Positions 35,302 through 36,026 of a DNA stretch of 64,000 bases are shown here, in pieces. The stretch is from contig OX597830.1 in the NCBI GenBank assembly GCA_951406725.2, positions 4,464,001-4,528,000 on the forward strand. Direction: 5' to 3'. Origin of the DNA: Octopus vulgaris (taxonomy: Eukaryota). Made by a program: the position numbers and the translations under genes. The notes beneath the pieces are model-generated. The model did not search any database. It was not told where the DNA came from and worked only from the letters and a program-made list of their open reading frames with translations. Position 1 is the first letter of the stretch; each line of letters starts with the position of its first letter.

Positions 35302-36026
35302 TATCAGTAATAATAATAAAGGGTGAAATTAATTAATTAGGGATAATTATCAATTACACCAAGTAGATTTCGGCATGTAAAAGCCCCATTCGAGGAAAAT
35401 TTAAGTAATACTAAGTAATTAAGGGTTTAGCAACGAATTGCCTCACCAACACACCGAATTTAGAAATAGCAGTCAAAGAGATATAGCTATTCCTTCTACT
35501 AAAAGGGGGATCTCAGTAAAAACACAGCACTTGAAAGGCAAACACAGACAGGTAAGAAAGAAAGAATGAAATGACGGCAATCTATCATGCAATTTTAAGT
35601 TACCTACGGACGTACGTTTCGAGATCAAGTTTTAGGATAGCATAAGAATTAGAAAATTCTACTTTACCCAAACTTCTTCTCTCATCGGCGCAGGATACAA
35701 CAATTATGAATAATTGTATATTAAATTTTGAGATACTAGAATGCATCATCTCAACTCAGTGTCAGAGCGAGCCAAAGCATGACCAGTACCACGAAATTCA
35801 AAGTTTGAATGAAAGTTTGTGTCACCAGCCCCCTTCCACCCGCGTGTAGCCAAGACAAAATGCTGCGGTCATTCACTGGGATAAAATATGGTTATCAGTA
35901 ATAATAATAAAGGGTGAAATTAATTACTTAGTATTACTTAAATTTTCCTCGAATGGGGCTTTTACATGCCGAAATCTACTTGGTGTAATTGATAATTATC
36001 CCTAATTAATTAATTTCACCCTTTAT
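35302..36026 (-). mobile_element. Non-autonomous Penelope-like element/retrozyme: ~591-bp unit, 34-bp direct repeat and 107-bp perfect inverted end, in (TA)n
   Basis: Direct repeat TATCAGTAATAATAATAAAGGGTGAAATTAATTA at 35302 and 35893; 35316-35422 inverted at 35920-36026; no ORF; hammerhead inside. Confidence 0.85.
35603..35694 (-). ncRNA. Type-I hammerhead ribozyme with long stem II and U4C core variant
   Basis: Minus strand: CCUGCG-CCGAUGA-GAGA..AAGUUU..GGGUA..AGAAUU-UUCU-AAUUCU..UAUCC..AAACUU..UCUC-GAAA-CGUACG-UC-CGUAGG; GUC triplet. Confidence 0.85.

Follow-up and report, generated by a model that had tools for sequence, protein, structure and literature searches.

A non-coding unit of 591 nt, set between two TA tracts of the Octopus vulgaris genome, carries a hammerhead ribozyme, repeats its own beginning and ends in an inverted copy of itself. 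What kind of element is this, from what RNA was it copied, and how did its inverted end arise? A sequence-only reading had proposed a candidate retrozyme, reverse transcribed once around a circular or multimeric RNA of ~590 nt, extended for another 34 nt and inverted by a template switch. We analysed the locus in its window (the whole 64-kb stretch of DNA under study) and its relatives in the genome (2.8 Gb, 227 contigs).

Anatomy of the locus and its hammerhead

The complete monomer occupies 35302..35892; its RNA corresponds to the minus strand, and we number it u1-u591 with u1 = 35302. It is followed by the first 34 nt of a second monomer (35893..35926, minus strand), in which the unit junction is read through: 35302-35335 and 35893-35926 are identical at a period of 591, as had been stated. 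The inverted second arm (35920..36026, plus strand) runs from u121 to u15, and 35316-35422 and 35920-36026 are 100% complementary over 107 nt. Direct repeat and arm share 7 nt of microhomology where the inversion joins (35920..35926, equal to 35416-35422). The two arms measure 625 nt and 107 nt. Since the locus holds 1.06 units and one hammerhead, it is, taken alone, a monomer copy. (TA)n target tracts flank it on the left (35162..35304; TRF, 72 copies, 95% matches) and on the right (36024..36524; TRF, 251 copies, 95% matches). The tracts had been called pure; TA is indeed present on both sides, but the tracts are ~95% pure and the right one carries CA/TG interruptions from 36034. A target-site duplication is unreadable within the right tract.

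The unit was correctly read as non-coding, its longest stop-free frame being 67 codons, and as retaining CpGs, with 16 observed against 19.9 expected (o/e 0.80); over 100 bins of the window the ratio has a median of 0.29, and a value as high as that of the unit is seen in 1% of them. Its GC content is 36.7%. The RNA-sense minus strand is predicted to fold unusually stably (z -5.0; 0/100 shuffles as stable), and the unit folded as a circle reaches -154.6 kcal/mol in the sense versus -104.7 kcal/mol in the antisense orientation.

A pattern scan of the window returned three hammerhead candidates, one of which is the single hammerhead of the unit, a type I motif on the minus strand (35603..35694, read from 35694 to 35603) recovered by pattern scan and fold. 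It comprises a stem I of 6 bp (35694-35689/35608-35603), the core CCGAUGA in its U4C variant (35688-35682), the base of stem II (35681-35678/35624-35621) with a long extension of ~57 nt, the GAAA (35620-35617) and a palindromic stem III (35616-35611). Self-cleavage is predicted after GUC, between 35609 and 35608 (35608..35609, u308|u307), a position that we take from the established hammerhead consensus. The active fold lies 3.9 kcal/mol above the MFE structure, in which stems I and II are already present. A second candidate, at 53461, has a stem II of just 2 bp, and we took it as a chance match. Rfam returned no family at gathering score for the 64-kb window, hammerhead included, and around the unit at E<=5 it gave chance-level matches with no hammerhead among them.

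The core is almost invariant across about 150 copies. Minor-allele frequencies in the young family are 1.4% in the core and stems versus 1.6-1.7% in the rest, giving no clear extra conservation. Among the first 100 matches listed, 77 carry U4C and 23 the canonical U4. Four loci with the canonical core share 87-93% identity with the window unit and have unchanged outer ends; stems I and III are kept in 8 of their 9 listed hammerheads, with one pair-preserving change, and two of the four show a compensatory change in stem II. A subfamily diverged by ~11% retains these ends and stems I and III together with a canonical core. At u398 (window position 35699), immediately 5' of stem I, the base is G, C or T across loci and even within them. 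U4C is a known natural variant with lowered activity in vitro (PMC3088659), and among Xenopus retrozyme dimers only 1/9 cleaved in vitro (bioRxiv 10.64898/2026.07.22.740005).

A young family with two paired outer ends

A 25-mer from the unit has 747 exact matches genome-wide (control, 0), and a similarity search with the unit gave 2015 candidates, the best of the 40 scored being 97-100% identical. Because the first 100 of the 747 matches listed, all on C1 or a part of C2, represent 56 separate loci, we extrapolate to roughly 400 loci with the 25-mer; diverged subfamilies add to these. The family is young, as had been suggested: a single difference in 591 positions separates the window unit from the closest monomers on other contigs. 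The perfect arms had been taken as the sign of a recent insertion. They are exact, but weak evidence of youth, because even unrelated loci show a mere ~1.1 differences in those 107 nt.

We parsed 97 loci, 56 of them unselected (from the 25-mer) and 41 found by similarity, leaving out duplicates and insertions cut by the edge of the retrieved sequence (L008/L009, L014). One arm was present in 38, two converging arms in 54 and a complex layout in 5; the complex loci were dropped from the end counts, which cover 92 loci and 146 arms. A check proposed earlier, for tandem arrays among genomic copies, gave arrays, with as many as 11 units in a single arm and a period of 588-591 elsewhere in the genome, and the unit junction is crossed in 22 of the 56 unselected loci. 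Mixed monomers inside arrays appeared in 12 of 851 tests. The 11-unit arm (L031, G000:C9:34222500-34232400) contains an internal block of 7 monomers with another base at u192, a sign either that the array grew once inserted or that a heterogeneous multimer was the template; given this block, some local expansion is likely.

The outer ends are fixed, a finding that led us to reject random circular permutation. They lie at one of two sites ~100 nt apart in 133 of the 146 arms, and their constancy and joining to TA suggest that these are the sites at which reverse transcription starts. Site A (u1-15, 35302..35316, minus strand) accounts for 60 arms and site B (u98 and u107, 35399..35408, minus strand) for 73 at u98-118, 63 of which end exactly at u98 or u107. 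A TA-rich flank adjoins 71 of 80 priming ends in the unselected loci. The stretch from A to B is the ~100-nt 'tail' of the 591-nt family. We considered whether the 34 nt repeated at the window locus might be the 30-40-nt tail of Penelope-like elements (PLEs) and rejected this, the family tail being ~100 nt and the inner ends scattered.

Use of the two sites is strongly paired. Among the 54 two-armed loci, 40 combine A with B, two have A twice, one has B twice and 11 have other ends, so that A+B makes up 40 of the 43 classifiable loci (p 3e-9); in the unselected set it is found in 19 of 25. The window locus is atypical, being one of the two in 54 with site A at both ends and site B unused.

The two arms of a locus appear to derive from one template. 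Opposite arms diverge by 0.47%, monomers within one arm by 0.38% and different loci by 1.80%. Scored at 22 common polymorphic sites, the arms of a locus gave 564 comparisons, 559 of them concordant, where random association would give 189 discordant. Against a single template, only 6 of 95 locus-private substitutions are common to both arms. In 28 of the 54 two-armed loci the arms overlap by at least 1 nt at the inversion junction.

For the family we consider it probable that both arms were primed on a single RNA and converged until joined by microhomology. A rival account, which we regard as unlikely, derives the inverted arm from fold-back: the freshly made cDNA would pair with itself at its end through microhomology and be copied back, and endonuclease resolution would set the second outer end. 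Fold-back would make the shared haplotype of the arms follow automatically, and both of its steps have been proposed for PLEs, self-priming for their inverted junctions (PMC3846280) and endonuclease resolution for their tail (PMC8557442). It accommodates the 36 of 54 arm pairs that are nested, among them the window pair with its 7-nt microhomology. The remaining 18 pairs are non-nested, several of them by 100-300 nt (L007, L013, L036, L041, L053, L054, L060 and L074), and for that reason simple copy-back cannot make them unless a deletion follows; a deletion at the hairpin centre can yield non-nested arms, and under fold-back such central deletions would have to be asymmetric. Fold-back must also explain why the second end carries the other start site, whichever arm is the longer. 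In vitro, moreover, the PLE protein of Anolis acts on both target strands, cutting and extending each, and uses two start sites (PMC11167929). The template switch suggested by the sequence-only reading accordingly fits the window locus, at which fold-back is as good as twin priming, while a third of the two-armed loci go beyond copy-back.

As a point against twin priming, the predicted lead of arm B over arm A appears in 11 of 15 untied pairs of single monomers, which is not significant (p 0.12). In L1 twin priming, both target ends prime on one RNA and the inversion is joined by microhomology. The cDNAs of L1 cover different parts of the RNA, whereas the arms here overlap and start at two fixed sites.

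Inner ends, the predicted cut site and the RNA template

The inner ends range over the whole unit, and the 34-nt run-on at the window locus is therefore a chance stop: of the proposed single turn plus 34 nt, the read-through of the junction is real and the 34 nt is no feature of the family. One segment nevertheless collects more ends than expected. Over all parsed loci, u296-307 contains 19 inner ends, where the number of passes leads one to expect 4.1, and the distribution has a sharp edge at the cut site, with none at u308-315 and the next at u316. The excess at u297-307 was noted after the first 40 loci, and held-out loci were fetched afterwards; these gave 10 inner ends versus 1.96 expected (P 4e-5). 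The 10 arms represent 8 loci, one of them beside an assembly gap, and by hand count 7 loci stand against about 2 expected. Two copies, L090 and L041, start at the exact first base of the predicted cut product. In 7 of the 54 two-armed loci (hand count) the inner ends of both arms lie at u286-307, versus 1.6 expected. Most passes read through the cut site, and they leave no scar there, since 163 read-through segments contain 3 differences at u303-312.

We think it likely, from the distribution of these ends, that cleavage by the hammerhead would explain the pile-up at u296-307. The simplest reading would then be a mixed template pool of cleaved linear RNA and uncleaved multimers or circles. It is also conceivable, though we give it a rather low probability, that the ribozyme is silent in vivo, that the templates are uncleaved transcripts of tandem arrays, and that reverse transcriptase (RT) stalls at stem I. 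The cut site does abut this 6-bp helix, whose 3' strand is u302-307, and other segments collect ends too: 7 lie at the distal edge (u228-231) of a predicted helix at u222-231, and 16 at u199-220. Yet stem I is the weaker helix (-7.2 against -11.9 for u222-231) and has the highest stop rate, 4.7x baseline, whereas among the 25 best no window away from it exceeds 2.1x. Predicted pairing and end counts are moreover unrelated over 33 bins (rho 0.06, p 0.76, not corrected for risk). The U4C core, the crossing of the cut site by most passes and the Anolis PLE, which works in vitro without need for cleavage and for which the available text reports no RNA-seq reads ending at the cut (PMC11167929), would all suit a silent ribozyme; against stalling speak the coincidence of the edge with the predicted base and the exact start there in two copies.

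That reverse transcription proceeded from a multimeric or circular RNA of ~590 nt is supported by the junction crossings and by the 11-unit arm. Seamless homogeneous arrays would fit a circle and an uncleaved multimer alike, whereas mixed arrays need a multimeric template or later change, a single circle alone being insufficient. A religated circle as template is about an even call, tilting slightly to the negative. Public contigs cover the locus: those of 4 of 24 listed runs, none of them on record as RNA, occupy 29, 27, 29 and 29 of 29 bins of 35423-36026. One of the four carries a second organism label, and the contigs come without strand, ends or circle; the assembly itself may have been built from the largest run. 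The inversion junction was bridged by no contig among the 32 pieces listed.

A possible course of events can be proposed. Tandem arrays would be transcribed on the minus strand into multimers, part of which the hammerhead, probably slow and dimeric via its palindromic stem III, would cut at u308|u307. A PLE protein with RT and GIY-YIG domains would bind the 3' module of the RNA (described below), cut (TA)n and start cDNA synthesis at A or B. The second target end would prime on the same RNA at the other site, and the converging arms would be joined by microhomology. RT might run off the cleaved 5' end; on an uncleaved multimer, or on a circle formed by religation, it might continue past the cut. 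In its fullest form, this would mean that the copies record a retrozyme life cycle in vivo, in which hammerhead-cleaved RNA is a direct template for RT, with run-off at the cut, religated circles give rise to the seamless arrays, and a dimeric Penelope protein primes both target ends on a single RNA, from two fixed sites separated by 100 nt; we put this combined account forward tentatively, as possible and open to considerable doubt. If true, twin priming would explain the Penelope layout of a tail at one end plus an inverted repeat, and several retrozyme families of ~570-590 nt in this genome would share one RT-recruiting 3' module.

Class, partner and neighbouring repeats

We are fairly confident that the locus is a recent insertion of a non-coding, non-autonomous retrozyme of the non-LTR type, mobilised in trans by a PLE protein. 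The family shows the features that define animal non-LTR retrozymes at the sequence level (PMC7229834; bioRxiv 10.64898/2026.07.22.740005): a type I hammerhead in the unit, at least two consecutive hammerhead units (found at the family level), and non-coding, dispersed copies with GC below 50%. It also shows those of non-autonomous PLEs, namely a partial tandem plus inversion, a one-sided tail, RT starts within the unit and an AT-rich target. No RT/GIY-YIG ORF of an autonomous PLE was found in the unit or joined to any of the 97 parsed loci. Plant LTR retrozymes, which carry type III hammerheads in their LTRs, are ruled out by the type I motif and the tandem organisation.

The sequence-only reading had named, as the outcome that would speak against it, a unit that is simply the pLTR of a longer autonomous PLE; tandem arrays were found, and no examined copy is joined to an ORF. 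We judge it improbable that the unit is a mere pLTR or 3' end of such an element, multiplied into arrays by later local unequal crossing over. The ends are of the PLE type, our search for a partner was shallow and the variant block of L031 makes some local expansion likely, but beyond u591/u1 there is always another monomer or flank and never an ORF in 97 of 97 loci. The arrays are bounded by the RT start sites and the inversion point, both arms may be multimeric, and the junction crossings occur in unselected loci. Hardly credible, finally, is an assembly or read fold-back artefact at the inverted end: the TA tracts on either side are long and perfect hairpins do occur in a few of the loci sampled (L134, next to an N gap, and L137), but between the arms of the window locus lies a 497-nt loop, and their junction shows microhomology and no mirror, and the converging layout recurs in 54 of 97 loci, each with its own junction.

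Like animal non-LTR retrozymes, the family consists of non-coding tandem repeats with GC below 50% and a type I hammerhead per unit, is dispersed as monomers and multimers, has a short palindromic helix III and is predicted to fold stably with the ribozyme near its active form. The unit length of 591 nt compares with 150-450 nt in PMC7229834 and 51-972 nt in bioRxiv 10.64898/2026.07.22.740005, and the family differs in its U4C core and the ~57-nt extension of stem II. Fixed RT starts, inverted arms, (TA)n targets and ends at the cut site are undescribed in the available parts of these two papers. Both demonstrate circles for animal retrozymes, which for the 591-nt family are putative. According to its available text, the latter study (Li, Clavereau & Pollet 2026) sampled no mollusc; it discusses a satellite route and leans to local expansion for arrays, while the arrays described here carry insertion marks at their borders. 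Dependence of retrozymes on PLEs has already been proposed (PMC7229834, Cervera & de la Pena 2020; bioRxiv 10.64898/2026.07.22.740005), as have cleavage, circles and more-than-unit copying, in that case without in vivo evidence (PMC4209133).

With endonuclease-bearing PLEs the family shares the partial tandem and inverted 5'-truncated copy with a tail at one end, two internal RT starts downstream of the hammerhead and AT-rich or (TA)n targets (PMC3846280; PMC8557442; PMC11167929). It differs from them in the absence of an ORF, in a tail of about 100 nt rather than 30-40 nt, and in templates that apparently end at the hammerhead cut, which went undetected for the Anolis element in the available text (PMC11167929). 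The non-autonomous elements of Chlamys, such as MRC1, are likewise non-coding PLE derivatives with multicopy head-to-tail insertions (PMC8557442). Those elements are similar at their 3' ends to an autonomous family already known, a partner of a kind that we did not find here among the endonuclease candidates scored, and they are mostly without canonical hammerheads, unlike the 591-nt unit (PMC8557442). In mainly open-access literature we found no report of an end pile-up at the cut site or of paired retrozyme start sites; the supplements of PMC8557442 and PMC7229834 may list related families.

The class itself being already known, what is gained is mechanistic. Three questions stand open in the available literature. 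Do hammerheads of the PLE type cleave in vivo, and are they important for mobility (PMC4209133, PMC8557442, PMC11167929)? By which enzyme are animal retrozymes mobilised (PMC7229834)? What gives rise to the tandem and inverted structures of PLEs (PMC8557442)? The youth and abundance of the 591-nt family make a count of its ends possible, and the ends tie a retrozyme to PLE-type integration, with a sharp edge at the cut site and strict A+B pairing.

The 3' module mentioned above (u1-176, 35302..35477, minus strand) is common to other repeat families of the genome, at about 70-80% identity (68% mean column identity over 10 sequences). We infer that it may be an RT-recruiting signal. Of the 30 pairs in its consensus fold, 5 show a double change, and the covariation term gives this fold no net support. 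An old, degraded copy of the module lies between TA tracts at 58998-59100 (profile E 8e-10). A sister family (L201-L230, e.g. G000:C1:133510899-133511326; 2185 candidates at 84-91% identity to the query copy) is older, has a period of about 570 nt and possesses its own hammerhead, inverted arms and the same 3' module.

No autonomous partner bearing the module was found among the endonuclease candidates scored (150 of 6136 and 150 of 17208), and the module was absent from 56 loci around endonuclease matches. The search of the GIY-YIG family led to a young, intact Penelope-like element in (TA)n (L184, G000:C6:133343000-133350000), many copies of which are 98-100% identical. It has pLTRs at 244-747 and 4957-5460, a 479-codon upstream frame (no Pfam match) that overlaps a 781-codon RT+GIY-YIG frame, and no hammerhead by pattern scan; its pLTR does not match the 591-nt unit. 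That such an element exists in the genome and inserts in (TA)n speaks for mobilisation by a PLE protein. A second family of endonuclease-like ORFs (17208 candidates, e.g. C9:84181309-84181656 and C19:23219887-23220231) has open frames of up to 1091 codons and long 3' regions; in 6 of 6 stretches reaching ~1.1 kb past the ORF, and so maybe short of the element end, there was no match to the unit. Across 240 loci, 14 had both a PLE protein match and the module, which lay downstream on the same strand in 6, in 5 of these across a TA tract of at least 34 nt. The sixth, L215, is unsupported as a join of module and PLE, 0 of 29 other sister-family loci aligning to its upstream part.

Further hammerheads and repeats lie nearby and elsewhere. 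Just left of the 591-nt unit, a piece of ~160 nt between two TA tracts (35005-35165, plus strand) holds a second, unrelated type I hammerhead with a canonical core (35031-35073, plus strand). The piece has relatives at 80-85% identity in L186, L174 and L158 and is probably the truncated end of another Penelope-like family. A hammerhead also follows an endonuclease-like ORF by about 1.1 kb in L200. More hammerheads with a long stem II occur at L200:1400-1830 and at L196:3030 and 6200, and one pair of this set lies in a large inverted duplication ending in (TA)n; such long-stem hammerheads seem common in the genome and may escape Rfam. Within the window, 26404-26773 is a tandem dimer of a 185-nt unit that resembles a tRNA-derived SINE, with related pieces at 34668-34717 and 36977-37026.
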